Virus record (IMG/VR): IMGVR_UViG_2681813313_000002
Direction: 5' to 3' (one strand)
Source of the DNA: a virus
Taxonomy: Duplodnaviria > Heunggongvirae > Uroviricota > Caudoviricetes
Length of the DNA stretch: 7,834 nt
Below the pieces are notes generated by a model that ran no database searches, was not told where the DNA came from, and saw only the letters and a list, made by a program, of their open reading frames with translations. How positions within the stretch are numbered: position 1 is the stretch's first letter; each line of letters starts with the position of its first letter. Position numbers and translations under genes: made by a program. Below are positions 1,209 to 7,624 of the stretch, piece by piece.

Positions 1209-1292
1209 CGAATTTCTCCCGTGTACAGGAACAGAGTTAAAAAGCCGGAACCGGAATCAAATTACAGGATGGCCATCTGCCAGTGGCAGGTC

Positions 1293-1321
1293 ATAAAAAA
1301 AAGGCCGCGCCATGCGCAGCC
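1293..1321 (-). terminator. Rho-independent terminator (minus strand) between the cargo region and nanS
   Basis: On the minus strand GGCTGCGCatgGCGCGGCC forms an about 8-bp GC-rich stem with a 3-nt loop, followed directly by TTTTTTTT (plus-strand A-run 1295..1302). On the plus strand the A-run precedes the hairpin, so it is strand-specific. Confidence 0.7.
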
Positions 1322-1507
1322 AGAACTCACAAGGAAAATGATAGAAGGAAATAACATTAGTGATGTACGCATGGCGCCTCCCGCTAAGTTCTGCAATGAT
1401 CAAACAGAACTCGCTACGTGCCCTTAAAACTCGATCATTTAGCCCCTCCAAGGAGGATTCACCATGCGGTTGATTTTTTAATAAACAGTAAACAAAAAAG
1501 TCAAGGA

Positions 1508-1751: not shown

Positions 1752-2510
1752 TTAAATTCTGGTCCTTACAATATCAACCTGAAGATTCTTATCTTGTGCT
1801 GATTGATAAATGACAAACCTTTTACTACCTGCATTGAAAGAAGTAGACAAAACCAGACAATTATCATAACGAGCAAGAACATAATACCAACCATCATTAT
1901 AATTAATCATTTCATATTCTTTCTTAAACTGTGGTTTGTAATATCCTGTCAGAAATGAAAAAAGCCAGAAATATGCCACAAAAGCAATCATCACAATCTC
2001 AAAAAAATGTTTTTTTATAAATGGCTTATCATAGAAGCATGATACCGATAAAAATCGCCCATAAGATCTTATCGAAATTGTAACCGCCAGCGCAATCGCT
2101 GCTGACAGTAGCAAAAGAGGTACCTGAATCTTCTGTCTCAATATAGAAAACTCAATAATTGCCGGCACAAACAATAATTCCACAGCAAAATAAAGGCGAA
2201 ATACATTTAGCTCTTGCATAGAATGTTTTCTTTTCACTGCGAAAAAGAATACAACACCAATACCCCAACCGATAAGAAATATAGCAATGACGATAACTGC
2301 AAAAAATAAACTTCTGGCAACATCATCAACACCTGCACCTACAATCCACCATGGGAAGCCGTAGTAAAAAGAAGTACCCCATCCATAGAAATAAGCACTC
2401 CCCCATCCAAGGCATCCCATGTAGGCAATAAAAAGTGAAGAACTCCTGAGCAGCGCACCATCCTTCATAACCACCCCAATACAAGATGATAACATTGGCT
2501 TACAACTCAT
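1752..2510 (-). CDS. Polytopic inner-membrane protein of unknown function (about 5 predicted TM helices plus an about 60-aa Tyr/Trp/Asn-rich C-terminal tail); AT-rich cargo gene
   Basis: 252-codon ORF, the only long ORF in the interval. Hydrophobic stretches read from the translation: LFIAYMGCLGWGSAYFYGW, LFFAVIVIAIFLIGWGIGVVFFFAV, LYFAVELLFVPAIIEFSIL, VPLLLLSAAIALAVTISI, FFEIVMIAFVAYFWLFSFL. Marked drop in G+C relative to flanking phage genes. No SD before the ATG at 2510; the in-frame ATG at 2468 (MKDGALL...) is preceded by GGGGTGG, so the true start may be 2468. I do not recognise the family. Confidence 0.6.
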   Translation of the reverse strand: MSCKPMLSSCIGVVMKDGALLRSSSLFIAYMGCLGWGSAYFYGWGTSFYYGFPWWIVGAGVDDVARSLFFAVIVIAIFLIGWGIGVVFFFAVKRKHSMQELNVFRLYFAVELLFVPAIIEFSILRQKIQVPLLLLSAAIALAVTISIRSYGRFLSVSCFYDKPFIKKHFFEIVMIAFVAYFWLFSFLTGYYKPQFKKEYEMINYNDGWYYVLARYDNCLVLSTSFNAGSKRFVIYQSAQDKNLQVDIVRTRI

Positions 2511-2747: not shown

Positions 2748-3371
2748 CTAACGTGTGATCGCATTCAAAATGTTGTCTGCGATTGACTCTTCCTTGTGGC
2801 ATTGCACAACCAGAGCGTCATACAGCGGCTTAACAGTGCGTGACCAGGTGGGTTGGGTAAGGTTTGGGATTAGCATCGTCACAGCGCGATATGCGGCGCT
2901 TGCTGGCATTCTTGAATAACCGACGCCTTTACATCTTCCGCACTCTTTCTCAGCAACTATCCCCCACTGCTCTGTTTTGGCTATATCAACCGCACGGCCT
3001 GTACCGTGGCAATCTCTGCATCTTGCGCCCGGCGTAGCAGCACTACGGCAATAATCCGCATAAGCGAATGTTGCGAGCACTTGCAGTACCTTTGCCTTAG
3101 TATTTCCTTCGAGCTTTGCCACACCACGGTATTTCCCCGATACCTTGTGTGCAAATTGCATCAGATAGTTGATAGCCTTTTGTTTGTCGTTCTGGCTGAG
3201 TTCATGCTTACCGCAGAATGCAGCCATTCCGAATCCGGCTTGTGATTGCGCCATCCCCATAGCAGCCATCACATCAGTACCGGAAAGAGAGTCAGAAGCC
3301 GTAGCCCGTGGTGAGTCGCTCATCATCGGGCTTTTTGGCGAATGAAATTTAGCTACGCTTTCGAGTCTCAT
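2748..3371 (-). CDS. Q: Late-gene antiterminator Q (lambda-type Q)
   Basis: 207 aa. Translation MRLESVAKFHSPKSPMMSDSPRATASDS...CRDCHGTGRAVD...CGRCKGVGYSRMPASAAYRAV... matches lambda Q almost residue for residue from memory, including the Cys-rich zinc-binding motifs. ATGA overlap with ninH upstream. pR'/qut follows. Confidence 0.93.
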   Translation of the reverse strand: MRLESVAKFHSPKSPMMSDSPRATASDSLSGTDVMAAMGMAQSQAGFGMAAFCGKHELSQNDKQKAINYLMQFAHKVSGKYRGVAKLEGNTKAKVLQVLATFAYADYCRSAATPGARCRDCHGTGRAVDIAKTEQWGIVAEKECGRCKGVGYSRMPASAAYRAVTMLIPNLTQPTWSRTVKPLYDALVVQCHKEESIADNILNAITR

Positions 3372-3915: not shown

Positions 3916-4202
3916 GACTTAATCTTCCCCTCCTTCAGCAGTATCGCCTGCGTCCTGATTACGCCTTCGAGGTGGTAAAGTCTGGCGTCTTTGTTGTCGA
4001 GATTATGGGTGCGTCTGTCGATTTCATCGTGACACGCGCTACAAGCCCATGCGCCGATCAGGTCTTCAGGCTTCATTCCAGTTCCGCAAATTCCAGCCAT
4101 CCGGTAATGTGCCAGAACTGTAGTTTCAGGATTGCCATTGCATATGCCGTAAATACGAACCTGGCATTCTCTGCCGCGTGCTTCTTTGCGTAGGTTAGCC
4201 AT
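3912..4202 (-). CDS. ybcO: YbcO-like DUF1364 family protein (putative Zn-binding nuclease of the nin region)
   Basis: 96 aa with the cysteine pattern CQVR…CNGNPETTVLAH…CGTGMKP…CSACHDEIDRRTH, as remembered for DLP12 YbcO. Start and upstream stop overlap as TAATG. Confidence 0.7.
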   Translation of the reverse strand: MANLRKEARGRECQVRIYGICNGNPETTVLAHYRMAGICGTGMKPEDLIGAWACSACHDEIDRRTHNLDNKDARLYHLEGVIRTQAILLKEGKIKS

Positions 4203-4909
4203 TAAGCAGCCTCCCCTGTTACTTTCAGCATTCCGTTATCGAGCAGCTTTCTGGTCAGCCACTGTTGACCACGCCCGGTGATTTTTGTGGTGAACGATAT
4301 CTGTATTCCGTGATTTGTGTTGACCGCTGTTTCTTTCACTGTGAAATAGCCGCGCTCCATATATTCCTGCATTGGCACATTTCGCCGGGAACCTGAAGCA
4401 ATAAGGATTTTGTGATCACGCATCCACGCAAACAGTTTGTTTGGACCAATACCAACAACCTTTGCATAGTTTCCAATCAAAATTCCGCTGGCCTCGCCAA
4501 CGCGATCGGCAAACTCAACTTTAGGTGCGGCAATTGCGAGCTGGTTTTCTAGTTGCATTTTCTGCTCAGCAAGATCAGCAGCAAGGCGTAACGCTTCTGG
4601 TAGCGTTTTTGGGATATTAACCGCAGCTTCTTCAAGCTCTCGCCAACGGTCAACAAGACGAGCGGTGAATTCCGGCGACAACTGGGCAACGACAATAATG
4701 CTGTCGCGCTTACCTTGTTCTCCTTCGAAGATGTAATAGCTTACCGGTCGGCCTGCGGTGGGCTTCTCCCCCATTGGGGGAAAAGCTATTACACCTCGTC
4801 CCGCCAGTCGTTCAATAGATTGTTTCACCTTGTCATGACGACTTCCCACCAACTCAGCGATTTCAATGCTGGTCATTTTGATGGCGTTGCTATTTATCAG
4901 CTCATTCAT
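4202..4909 (-). CDS. roi: Roi-like phage regulatory protein / antirepressor (Rha-type N-terminal domain + KilA-C/ANT C-terminal domain)
   Basis: N-terminus IKMTSIEIAELVGSRHDKVKQSIERL resembles the Rha/pRha family. C-terminal half (…YAKVVGIGPNKLFAWMRDHKIL…GYF…) resembles the KilA-C/ANT domain. Position between ninB and Q matches roi in HK022-like phages. The ORF starts at 4915, but GAGAGG sits 8 nt before the second ATG at 4909, which is the more likely start. Confidence 0.7.
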   Translation of the reverse strand: MNELINSNAIKMTSIEIAELVGSRHDKVKQSIERLAGRGVIAFPPMGEKPTAGRPVSYYIFEGEQGKRDSIIVVAQLSPEFTARLVDRWRELEEAAVNIPKTLPEALRLAADLAEQKMQLENQLAIAAPKVEFADRVGEASGILIGNYAKVVGIGPNKLFAWMRDHKILIASGSRRNVPMQEYMERGYFTVKETAVNTNHGIQISFTTKITGRGQQWLTRKLLDNGMLKVTGEAA

Positions 4910-4942
4910 TGTCATGTCCTCTCATATTGAAAATTCAGCAAT

Positions 4943-4970
4943 AAAAAACCCAGCCGAAGCTGGGTTTGTT
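4943..4970 (-). terminator. Rho-independent terminator (hairpin with U-tract on the minus strand; weaker in the plus direction)
   Basis: CCCAGC-cgaa-GCTGGG stem at 4949..4964, flanked by an A-run (4943..4948) on one side and TTTGTT on the other. Lies between the 355-aa gene and the roi-like gene. Confidence 0.6.
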
Positions 4971-5032
4971 AAGTTGTCAATGGTCAGTAGTAATGCAGTG
5001 AAGGAGGTAAACTTACGCTGAAGGATTTGTAC

Positions 5033-5055
5033 AAAAAAACCACCTGAAGGTGGGT
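5033..5055 (-). terminator. Rho-independent terminator immediately 3' of the 355-aa gene
   Basis: Minus strand: CCACC-ttca-GGTGG hairpin followed by TTTTTTT, beginning 6 nt after the stop codon at 5061..5063. Confidence 0.65.
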
Positions 5056-5060
5056 TACTG

Positions 5061-6074
5061 TTACTTGTCTGAATCATCCAGTTCGTCTGTTTTCACATCC
5101 TCAAACCTTGGATGCAGGCGATTCATTTTTGCAATAAAATCTGAATAGTCGTTAGATAGCTTCATAATCGTAACGGTTGATGACAGATGCTCTCTTAATT
5201 TTTGATATCCAATATTTGGCGTCAGCCCCTGAAACAACTTTGTACCTTTTGAGGCCTTTACGTTCTGCTTTTTAAGCTCCTCAAGGATGTTTGGTGCCAA
5301 TCTCTTGTAGACGATATCATTTGTCAAAACGCCAAAATACTGAGGCCGGAAGCGGGGATTTTCCGGCGGGTATTCTAAGCCCCTTAACCTGAAAAGCTCT
5401 TCATAATAATCAGCAGGAAATGTTGTAATATAAGGTTGAATTTCCTTTGCGACAAAGGCCTCGAGTATTTTGGCGAGCGCATCTTTTTCTCTATCTCGCT
5501 GGTACCCCGTCGCTTCATCAACAAGCGCTATTATTCCGACTTTAGCTAATGAGCGCACCAGAATTTCAGCTTTCTTGGCTGTCTCTAACTGGTTTGGCCT
5601 GGTGATAGCGCCTGCCTCTCTTGCCTTTAAATAAACATCGCAGACAAGAGGTATTATGGATGCGTCATAACCTTCCTGGACGGAGCCAGTAATCGTCTTG
5701 TATTTGACCTTATTGATCACATCCATAACATCTTGATTTATATATTTTTTAAGGTTTGCAGCATCCATAAAAGCGGGCATATTGATCACCCCCTCTTCTT
5801 GAGGTGCTCTACCCCCTCTTTGTGGTCGGCCAAATGCTTTAAAAACAGAAGCTTGTGATATGATACGCCGTCCATTTTCGAGAACCGCGACATCTAATTC
5901 CGCATCACCGATCTTTAACTTTCCCTCATTCGCAGATACGGGCAATAAAGCTTTTTCTTTTTTTGCGGCAACAGCCTTTCTTGAGGATTCTTTTCTTTGC
6001 TCTGCTGTCATTTTTGCCGCGCGTGCCTTACCGCCTTTGGCCTTCCCACTAACATCATCATTTTTCATGAGCAT
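5061..6074 (-). CDS. Phage cargo protein, tentatively P63C-domain family, with a Lys/Ala-rich basic N-terminal tail; function unknown
   Basis: Long ORF whose body (…GRRIISQASVFKAFGRPQRGG…GIIALVDEATGYQRDRE…) recalls P63C-domain phage proteins; this is from memory, not a search. N-terminus KAKGGKARAAKMTAEQRKESSRKAVAAKKEKA is strongly basic. The ORF-track start at 6128 is rejected because 6100..6128 is a promoter/operator; translation probably starts at ATG 6074 (MLMKNDD) or 6068 (MKNDD). Confidence 0.6.
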   Translation of the reverse strand: MLMKNDDVSGKAKGGKARAAKMTAEQRKESSRKAVAAKKEKALLPVSANEGKLKIGDAELDVAVLENGRRIISQASVFKAFGRPQRGGRAPQEEGVINMPAFMDAANLKKYINQDVMDVINKVKYKTITGSVQEGYDASIIPLVCDVYLKAREAGAITRPNQLETAKKAEILVRSLAKVGIIALVDEATGYQRDREKDALAKILEAFVAKEIQPYITTFPADYYEELFRLRGLEYPPENPRFRPQYFGVLTNDIVYKRLAPNILEELKKQNVKASKGTKLFQGLTPNIGYQKLREHLSSTVTIMKLSNDYSDFIAKMNRLHPRFEDVKTDELDDSDK

Positions 6075-6099
6075 ATCTCGTGTTGTGATTGATAAGTCA

Positions 6100-6145
6100 A
6101 TCATACACATGCACGTTGTAACGTGCAATATTTAAATATGCACGT
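6100..6145 (-). promoter_or_regulatory. Sigma70-type promoter (TTGCAC-17 bp-TATGAT) overlapped by three copies of a 7-bp TGCACGT/ACGTGCA operator-like motif
   Basis: Minus strand: -35 TTGCAC (plus 6128..6123), a 17-bp spacer, -10 TATGAT (plus 6105..6100). TGCACGT occurs at 6110..6116 and 6139..6145 and its reverse complement ACGTGCA at 6121..6127. Sites 1 and 2 form a perfect 8-bp-arm inverted repeat, TGCACGTT-gt-AACGTGCA, covering the -35 and spacer. Confidence 0.55.
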
Positions 6146-6291
6146 AAATTGCGAATCAGATAATGAGGAGACTTTCTCCCCCTTGCACTGACATCATGGT
6201 ATTCTGCTCAAAACTAAATTTCTGGAGCGTTTCGTTGGAAGGTATTTGCAGTTTTCGCAGATTATGTCGGTGATGCTTCGTCGCTGTCGTC

Positions 6292-6702
6292 TCATTCGTA
6301 CCTCCTGTCGGTAAATCTGACACCCTGACCAATAGCCCAGGCTGTTGTGTACTCGATCAGACTTGCCATACGCTTCACGCTCATCTGCGCGCTGCTTTCG
6401 CGAATGTTGACGTATTCGCCTTCAAGCCCGGGCAAAACATCAGCTTCCTGCTTTGTTGCCACTGCATGACCGCTAATCAACAAAACCTTCCATTGTTCTG
6501 GTTTTAACCACTTATCGCACCATTGAACCTGACGTGCGATATCCGCCAGCATCGCGTGAAATTTTGCGTTCTGGTCAAGGTTGCGCTTGTAGTCAGTAAT
6601 GCGGATGGTGACTGGCTTGTCTTTATCGAGAGGAGTTGCGAGGATGGCGTTGATTGCGGCTTGCTGTTGTTGCTTAGTTCGGAGGAAGATTGTTTGCTTC
6701 AT
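6292..6702 (-). CDS. ninB: NinB (Orf-family recombination mediator)
   Basis: 136 aa. Architecture MK…QQQAAINAI…[33 protein letters not shown]…WLKPEQWK… parallels lambda NinB (…RSLDQNRKLWACLGDVSRQVEWHGRWLDAESWK…). AAGGAG SD 7 nt upstream of the ATG. Confidence 0.85.
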
Positions 6703-7333: not shown

Positions 7334-7624
7334 TCATCTTTTAACTCCATATACCGCCAATACCCGTTTCATCGCGGCACTCTGGCAACACTCCTTAAAA
7401 ATCAGGTTCGTGCTCATCTTTCCTTCCCGTTCTTCCTTGGTAGCAAACCGGTAATACACCGTTCGCCAGACCTTACCTTCGATAACCAGAAGACCTGCCC
7501 GTGCCATTTTAGCCGCGGCCTGATTTATGCTGGTTACTGTTGCGCCTGTTAACGCGGCAACGTCCGGCGCACAGAAGCTATTATGCGTCCCCAGGTAATG
7601 AATAATTGCCTCTTTGCCCGTCAT
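7334..7624 (-). CDS. Hypothetical phage protein (96 aa), possible winged-helix DNA-binding fold
   Basis: ORF coupled by ATGA overlap to the upstream ORF. The segment PDVAALTGATVTSINQAAAKMARAGLLVIEGKVWRTVYY looks like a helix-turn-helix/winged-helix recognition unit. No confident family assignment. Confidence 0.5.
   Translation of the reverse strand: MTGKEAIIHYLGTHNSFCAPDVAALTGATVTSINQAAAKMARAGLLVIEGKVWRTVYYRFATKEEREGKMSTNLIFKECCQSAAMKRVLAVYGVKR

Follow-up and report, generated by a model that had tools for sequence, protein, structure and literature searches.

Organization of the locus

The DNA considered here is a stretch of 7,834 nucleotides (hereafter the window) from a tailed-phage record of IMG/VR, IMGVR_UViG_2681813313_000002, which covers the early-right or nin region of a lambdoid prophage and has all of its genes on the minus strand. 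Between a truncated ninE and roi it carries a gene for a P63C-domain protein, and comparison with other phages establishes the locus as a foreign, portable insertion in ninE with its own terminator, fixing its anatomy, origin, portability and family. Ahead of the gene lies a compact block of TGCA-core repeats over a predicted weak promoter, which recurs with the gene in quite different surroundings and has the appearance of an operator. The features of this cassette and its edges are as follows.

5011..6217, minus strand: inserted cassette of 1.2 kb, delimited by blastn against VT2-Sakai
6194..6295, minus strand: truncated ninE of 33 codons; homology to intact ninE stops at 6218 (RefSeq: NinE family, incomplete)
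6139..6145, minus strand: repeat 1, ACGTGCA, which directly follows an upstream terminator in relatives
6110..6127, minus strand: repeats 2 and 3, together an 18-bp palindrome, TGCACGTT-AC-AACGTGCA, with perfect 8+8 arms and a 2-nt centre
6100..6128, minus strand: candidate sigma-70 promoter TTGCAC-17-TATGAT (-35 at 6128-6123, -10 at 6105-6100), start predicted near 6093
6077..6088, minus strand: leader box TCACAACACGAG, 8 nt before the ATG, containing a GAG Shine-Dalgarno sequence
5061..6068, minus strand: gene for the P63C-domain protein, most likely 335 aa, between truncated ninE and roi
5033..5053, minus strand: the cassette's intrinsic terminator as read from the sequence, CCACC-TTCA-GGTGG followed by seven T (5-bp stem with 4 GC pairs, 4-nt loop)
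4940..4967, minus strand: backbone terminator upstream of roi (hairpin 4967-4946; 9-bp stem, T-tract), the stronger of the two

Limits and occurrence of the cassette

Homology to VT2-Sakai, as traced by blastn, ends at 6218 inside ninE and resumes at 5010, so that the cassette runs from 6217 to 5011 and takes in the first of the two terminators and leaves out the second; in its place VT2-Sakai holds the remainder of ninE together with orf34 and an ant gene. An earlier reading of the window made from the sequence alone (the sequence-only reading) had noted a hairpin with a U-tract right after the stop codon, which is found 7 nt past the TAA, and a second terminator beyond it, which exists at 4967-4946 but is backbone DNA common to VT2-Sakai and thus lies outside the cassette. 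The GC content of the cassette is 40-44%, as against 47-51% in its flanks. The gene also stands apart in its spacing, being separated by 225 nt from its upstream neighbor and by 145 nt from its downstream one, whereas the other nin genes are chained, as had been claimed, by overlaps of 1-4 nt (the ATG of ninE, for example, overlaps the ninB stop as ATGA). The full cassette, counted as at least 80% of a 1451-bp query, is carried by 49 of 5426 complete Escherichia coli genomes, EDL933 included, or by 49 of the 2212 that match any part of the query. To judge from the two kinds of occupant (P63C here; orf34 and ant in VT2-Sakai), accessory genes appear to have been exchanged repeatedly at the ninE-to-roi junction. 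The backbone segment at 4968-5010 (minus strand), upstream of roi, is present in phages without the cassette too, and within it, immediately ahead of the backbone terminator, is a consensus TTGACA.

The same gene likewise lies between truncated ninE and roi in two known phages, its product being 99.7% identical to L0095 of 933W (ST933Wp35, NP_049495) and identical to ORF350 of Lahn1; an identical or 99.7% identical copy is also found in BP-4795, and the records describe these proteins as hypothetical or "P63C domain-containing". Both 933W and Lahn1 have a methyltransferase directly upstream of ninE, where the window has ninB, and the backbone of the window differs from theirs in its 434-type operators and in having ybcO and rusA instead of ninG. 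In the cI-cro intergenic region of the prophage (L002, 5366-5471) the 434-type operators are ACAAGAAAGTTTGT and relatives, and its immunity therefore differs from that of 933W despite the shared cassette.

The P63C protein

A Pfam search places residues 201-291 in the P63C family (PF10546; 84.3 bits against a cut-off of 26.1, E 9e-24, covering profile positions 1-93 of 93), which bears out an assignment first offered tentatively; P63C is the sole Pfam domain that the protein yields. PHROG 2384, whose function is listed as unknown, matches over the full length (residues 3-334 against profile positions 2-337 of 338; E 1.8e-146). The P63C family is large: over 7600 members are found at E up to 1e-5, typically 320-345 aa long, and they span phages of Proteobacteria, Firmicutes, and Actinobacteria.

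The gene had been read as 355 codons from a TTG at 6128. That TTG opens the proposed -35, of which 6128 is the first base, so the 355-aa frame and the -35 are mutually exclusive; the N-terminus falls at the ATG at 6068 both in an alignment of 34 homologues and by the PHROG 2384 profile, and a product of 335 aa fits better and is the most likely one on this comparison. The public annotation (RefSeq WP_000335901, 349 aa; NP_049495 of 933W) starts at an ATG at 6110, inside repeat 3 and 14 codons too far upstream, and the annotation of orf23 of phage ST104 likewise begins at an ATG that belongs to a repeat.

Three parts can be told apart in the protein: a basic, helical N-terminus (residues 1-42), a beta/alpha domain that varies among homologues (43-135), and a C-terminal half, conserved and helical, within which P63C lies at 201-291. 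Identity across homologues ranges from 19 to 100% in the variable domain and from 45 to 100% in the C-terminal half. In an AF2 model (mean pLDDT 74) the N-terminus forms two helices, a beta/alpha domain follows, and the C-terminal half is long and helical. The basic character of the N-terminus, remarked upon in the sequence-only reading, proves in the homologue alignment to be that of a conserved module: in the segment GKAKGGKARAxKMTxEERKE..A.KAAxAKKE, positions G12, G13, and R25 hardly vary within the family. A search of the N-terminal 48 aa against 1.8 billion representatives returned 14 matches, mostly fragments along with a few proteins in which GG.ARA..LT.E.R.EIARKA is present twice; the segment is thereby shown to be a separable, unannotated small basic module, and no annotation was gained. 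A motif of the form (K)GG.ARA..LT.E.R.EIARKA..ARW occurs twice in tandem in the otherwise unrelated proteins P0130, P0133, and P0134.

Residues 43-135 have no Pfam match at E up to 10 and weak fold matches only, to Bro, KilA, Dachshund, and DdrC, in a domain modeled with pLDDT 84-90 in parts; Foldseek against viral models returned p63 of Myxococcus phage Mx8, plus weak matches to Bro-N, KilA, and antirepressors. The invariant residues (D184, E185, T187, G188, Q190, R193, E203, N250, Y254, and R256) might form an active or interaction site. A sequence search of the PDB found no relative of the protein, and a literature search found no paper on the function of P63C or on L0095.

The control region

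The heptamers TGCACGT and ACGTGCA occur exactly three times in the 7834 bp, all within 36 bp (6110-6116, 6121-6127, and 6139-6145), in agreement with the three copies reported at the promoter from the letters alone. The half-sites are arranged as ACGTGCA, N11, TGCACGT, N4, ACGTGCA, and the portions TTGCACG and ACGT.CA are invariant in seven cassettes. Two of the copies had been described as a perfect inverted repeat over the -35; the symmetry is indeed perfect (8+8), but the palindrome covers the -35 plus most of the spacer and not the -35 alone. The promoter, which had been called near-consensus, matches the consensus at 8 of 12 positions and at 3 of 6 in its -35 (against TTGACA). A sigma-54 reading of TTGCACG...GTGCA was considered by eye and rejected on spacing.

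A second perfect palindrome, TGATTGA-CTTA-TCAATCA (7-4-7; 6086..6103, minus strand), extends over the -10 and the predicted start. It is found in the window and the 933W variants, relatives having instead a fourth TGCA-type half-site, TTGCTCGTA or TTGCACGTA, and it could serve as a second, different operator.

In the leader, an 11-nt core, CACAACACGAG, is invariant in seven enteric cassettes, with the first base T in six of the seven. The core stands unchanged in the window and in loci L008, L009, L011, L036, L038, L046, L101, and L164, even at ~33-55% protein identity; its counterpart in ST104 is TCACAACAAAGAG. On this comparison, the leader box is far more conserved than is needed for a Shine-Dalgarno sequence.

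Relatives in other genomic settings

Homologues of 83-90% identity sit in quite different genomic places, with the cassette found inside a myovirus tail/baseplate module (L008), in the rexAB slot between N and a cI-like repressor that it immediately follows (L009, L010), and in an arc/mnt/ant immI region (L011, L012). Over the upstream 100 nt, these relatives nonetheless keep one order: a terminator, which in several of them abuts repeat 1; ACGTGCA; N10-11; TTGCACGT; N4; ACGT(G/A)CA; an A/T-rich hexamer resembling a -10; in many cases a fourth half-site; and then TCACAACACGAG, followed after 8-10 nt by the ATG. An intrinsic terminator lies directly 3' of the gene in every related cassette.

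More distant members extend this diversity. In the Salmonella phage ST104, orf23 (33% identity) lies between cI and gene 24 and has ATGCAAGCA/ATGCTTGCT repeats; in SEN34 the P63C gene is antisense in the nin region; in Pseudomonas aeruginosa prophages it is antisense inside the tail operon, near Imm_superinfect and Arc/ant morons; and in some Pseudomonas genomes it occupies a non-phage island adjoining pyocin and PAAR genes. The antisense relatives therefore need a promoter of their own. Among 57 loci with distinct proteins, no neighboring family recurs at more than 13, and those 13 have a cI-like repressor directly upstream.

The repeats accompany the gene across the family. TGCA cores stand at 1.75 per 100 nt in 55 non-redundant upstream regions and at 0.39 in 439 control segments from the same loci (Mann-Whitney p 2e-15), and they concentrate at -80 to -40 from the start codon; counts of the exact heptamer (2.25 upstream vs. 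1.74 in controls) proved too crude and were replaced by these core counts. The flanks of the core vary with lineage: enteric cassettes have ACGTGCA; many others, Pseudomonas phage Lodos and ST104 among them, have (A)TGCTTGCA/TGCAAGCA(T); an AT-rich group has TTAGCAT-T-ATGCTAA; and a Gordonia phage has GCACGCA/TGCGTGCA. The spacing of the arms ranges from 1 to about 20 nt. That a non-coding arrangement persists across proteins only 45-60% identical points to selection on the layout of the repeats, and it is on this conservation in relatives, and not on statistics within the window, that their significance rests. They are best described as conserved, operator-like sites.

As for what might bind them, 19.4 kb of the same prophage hold no further exact ACGTGCA or TGCACGT site and no separate cognate repressor, both of which had been proposed as objects of search. 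The same cassette sits in phages of differing immunity types and hosts, and the sole protein that is always co-inherited with the repeats is the cassette's own product. At four loci (L101, L143, L163, and L164), an exact TGCACGT-N4-ACGTGCA lies 51-70 nt upstream of the gene. These share with the window the regulatory block and the basic N-terminus; since they have the same palindrome at 18-30% identity in residues 43-135, the variable domain was rejected as the part that sets the operator type. Firmicute homologues that start at the middle domain (16 loci) have TGCA at the background level (about 0.25 per 100 nt); in at least some cases where the basic N-terminus is lacking, the gene starts a few bases after the preceding one. 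Basic N-terminus, repeats, and free-standing promoter thus occur together, as they would if the gene were autoregulated by way of the N-terminus.

Viral contigs scanned for TGCACGT-N4-ACGTGCA yielded 103 stretches, of which 80 were retrieved as loci; 22 of the 80 adjoin a P63C gene, and the palindrome is thereby ruled out as exclusive to P63C cassettes. By a rough estimate of our own, the other 58 loci are roughly at chance level, a few XRE operator regions aside. The palindrome with extra half-sites was seen at or between genes for XRE-type helix-turn-helix (HTH) proteins on P63C-free contigs (L095, 677-694; L116, 4245-4262; L122; L133; and L160), which may reflect either convergence or a shared operator.

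Transcription in EDL933

Primary 5' ends have been mapped by Cappable-seq in EDL933 (NZ_CP008957) under eight uninduced conditions (Zehentner et al.; PMC10469882). The cassette gene is RS06780 in that genome (1351015-1352064), and the start predicted here maps to 1351032. The canonical list passes from RS06735 (1346320, pR) to RS06800 (1353622, upstream of Q) and the list of internal transcription start sites (TSSs) runs past 1.40 Mb, with detection cut-offs applied and an orphan-TSS table that may be incomplete (PMC10469882). The sequence-only reading had the gene autonomously expressed and had named the lack of a start in lysogens as what would speak against this; among the starts listed for the eight conditions there is none for the gene, which counts against constitutive expression. 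Of the self-contained unit that had been described, the foreign and portable insertion with its own control region and terminator stands on comparison, while autonomous expression in the lysogen is unsupported. Expression from the repressed prophage, which belongs to the usual picture of a moron, was likewise not seen among these starts. Such an absence could mean a promoter under tight repression or one that is dead, and a real but shut promoter is favored because the block is conserved and relatives stand antisense.

A proposed repressed accessory cassette and its alternatives

The reading that we favor, and to which we give an even chance of being right, is that of a mobile single-gene accessory cassette, or moron, inside ninE, with its own repressed promoter and a conflict function. 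A weak sigma-70 promoter lying under the TGCA half-sites would allow expression independent of the pR-derived, N-antiterminated nin transcript, and the repeats would act as operators that keep this promoter tightly shut. The repressor would be the cassette's own product, probably acting via the conserved basic N-terminal helices (GKAKGGKARAxKMTxEQRKE...), and the product would have a conflict function of benefit to the lysogen, such as superinfection exclusion or abortive infection. The conflict function is suggested by the slots in which the family is found, namely those of rex and immI, tail-operon morons, antisense placements, and competition islands. The sequence-only reading had spoken of an accessory or defense module; relatives do occupy accessory- or defense-type slots, and from there to defense itself is a step that we infer, as we do promoter activity and autorepression, from arrangement and conservation.

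Several observations weigh against this reading. Promoter activity is predicted from a site with 3 of 6 matches in the -35, and a promoter scanner left TTGCAC-17-TATGAT below its threshold and unlisted, because 8 of 12 falls short of that threshold. Taken by itself, the window gives the repeat cluster only marginal statistical support (p about 0.06), dinucleotide shuffles giving the triple heptamer cluster in 6.3% of cases and at least two 8+8 palindromes in 16%. The EDL933 tables list no canonical, internal, or antisense TSS for RS06780 (PMC10469882). Binding of the repeats by the P63C protein is putative. The N-terminal motif has no Pfam match, the operator type does not track the variable middle domain, and the correlation that suggests autoregulation through the N-terminus is confounded by host phylum. 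The occurrence of the palindrome beside XRE-type repressors means that another repressor could act in trans. Lastly, the PADLOC 2.0 defense models gave matches at chance level only (E above 0.005) for the protein and 44 family members.

An alternative that we consider rather unlikely, and the strongest of those weighed, holds that the P63C protein is a developmental regulator or anti-repressor of the Bro-N/KilA-N/Ant class that serves lytic growth or induction, with the repeats as its operator and no protection of the lysogen. Mx8 p63, after which the domain is named, is termed an anti-repressor by RefSeq; VT2-Sakai has ant in the same slot; the gene lies beside arc/ant in L011, L204, and L206; its neighbor in the window is roi (KilAC/Rha); and the lack of a listed start in the uninduced EDL933 lysogen also speaks for it. 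However, the protein has no Pfam match to ANT/KilAC (PF03374), KilA-N, or Bro-N at E up to 10, and islands with pyocin and PAAR genes or antisense sites in tail operons would be odd places for a developmental regulator.

Somewhat less probable again is that the promoter and repeats are nonfunctional here, and that the gene is read from pR under N antitermination, its terminators being of the nin type and overridden by N. The gene is co-oriented with the nin operon, and the weak -35, the subthreshold score, the marginal within-window statistics and the empty entry in the EDL933 tables are all as this alternative would have them. Against it stand the base-by-base conservation of the block in four unrelated contexts and beside proteins as little as about 33-48% identical, the need for a promoter where the gene is placed antisense elsewhere, and the upstream terminator that abuts repeat 1 in several relatives.

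It is doubtful that the repeats are bound by a repressor from another prophage or from the host, which would then switch expression. The identical palindrome with extra half-sites at XRE-type HTH genes in L095 and L116 would suit such a repressor, as would the different palindrome that the window and 933W variants add over the -10. Yet the repeats are kept across immunity types and hosts, TGCA-core repeats are found in Pseudomonas and Gordonia phages also, no other site exists in 19.4 kb of the prophage, and the palindrome loci away from P63C genes are about as many as chance would give, by the rough estimate above. Finally, action of the inverted repeats as RNA structure (an attenuator or processing site) in read-through transcripts is very improbable, for although the 91-nt region folds with z = -4.0, palindrome hairpin included, any palindrome folds well as RNA, and transcription is predicted to start downstream of the repeats, which come after a terminator in relatives, vary in arm spacing from 1 to about 20 nt across the family, and have no Rfam match at the locus.

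Comparison with known systems

A moron is an insertion consisting of promoter, gene, and terminator, and is usually described as expressed from the prophage. The cassette resembles lambdoid morons such as bor and lom of lambda and gp15 of HK97 in being a single gene between conserved genes, with deviant GC content, its own terminator, and a promoter-like site. It is unlike the usual moron in that no prophage expression is listed for it in the EDL933 tables, and in that a conserved multi-site operator travels with the gene.

The nearest analogue in logic is BstA, a prophage gene after cI whose product has a KilA-N-like N-terminus and whose co-inherited DNA element, aba, spares the carrier phage (Owen et al., 2021; PMC8585504). 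Like the P63C cassette, BstA is a single prophage gene with its own terminator, a putatively DNA-binding N-terminal part and a co-inherited repeat element at its 5' end, and P63C homologues, although not the gene of the window, occupy the same cI-to-N slot (ST104 orf23, L009, and L036; 13 of the 57 loci). The two differ in other respects. BstA lies directly downstream of the prophage repressor, whereas the P63C gene of the window lies among the nin genes; no sequence relationship links the two proteins, the P63C protein having no BstA match in PADLOC and no KilA-N match in Pfam; aba consists of direct CCCGCC repeats spanning the start codon, whereas the P63C cassette has TGCA inverted repeats over its promoter; and BstA is highly expressed in lysogens, whereas the P63C gene is without a TSS among those listed for EDL933 (PMC8585504; PMC10469882). 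Homologues of the cassette also sit in the slots of lambda rexAB and of P22 sieB/immI, although the proteins are unrelated and the cassette of the window is in the nin region.

By this analogy, the TGCA repeats are a candidate cis element that would confer self-immunity. A broader proposal, speculative and on balance improbable, is that P63C cassettes, in prophages and genomic islands alike, are widespread single-gene conflict modules, self-repressed via TGCA repeats that would also mark the carrier DNA as self, and that they abort or exclude heterologous phages but spare the phage that carries them.

The gene itself is already catalogued; the conserved operator architecture and the mobility of the cassette are, as far as the literature found by search shows, undescribed. 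It is carried by 933W, the Stx2 phage of E. coli O157:H7 EDL933, and by many Stx1 and Stx2 phages, and has been labeled hypothetical since 1999, while the family appears repeatedly in the slots of exclusion and abortive-infection genes. Should the cassette be a defense or self-recognition module, it would represent a common new family with a bearing on competition among Stx prophages, and as a self-marking conflict module in 933W it could affect how the Stx2 phage is induced or how lambdoid prophages compete; should it be merely a silent regulator, the finding would be an ordinary one. As a short and defined cassette with a portable operator-promoter block, it makes its function directly testable.

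Other features of the window

No stx gene is present in the 19.4 kb of this prophage that the analysis covered. The neighbors of the cassette within the window include the following.

7334-7624, minus strand: ren
6292-6702, minus strand: ninB
4202-4915, minus strand: roi (KilAC plus Rha; Pfam ANT and Rha domains), the downstream neighbor of the P63C gene

Two small open reading frames (ORFs) lie between ren and ninB, and downstream of roi come ybcO, rusA, ninH, and Q, the last at 2748-3371. Directly after Q, a further ORF (1752-2510, minus strand) encodes a hydrophobic and probably multi-pass membrane protein of 252 aa, which belongs to PHROG 1521 and has no Pfam family; it is another likely accessory gene, placed in the gap between Q and lysis. 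A sub-threshold Rfam match to the small RNA STnc100 lies at 1292-1497 (minus strand; 37.7 bits against a gathering score of 47, E 1.5e-5), downstream of Q and two ORFs in the late-leader region, and the STnc100-like stretch ends at a strong terminator at 1321-1303.

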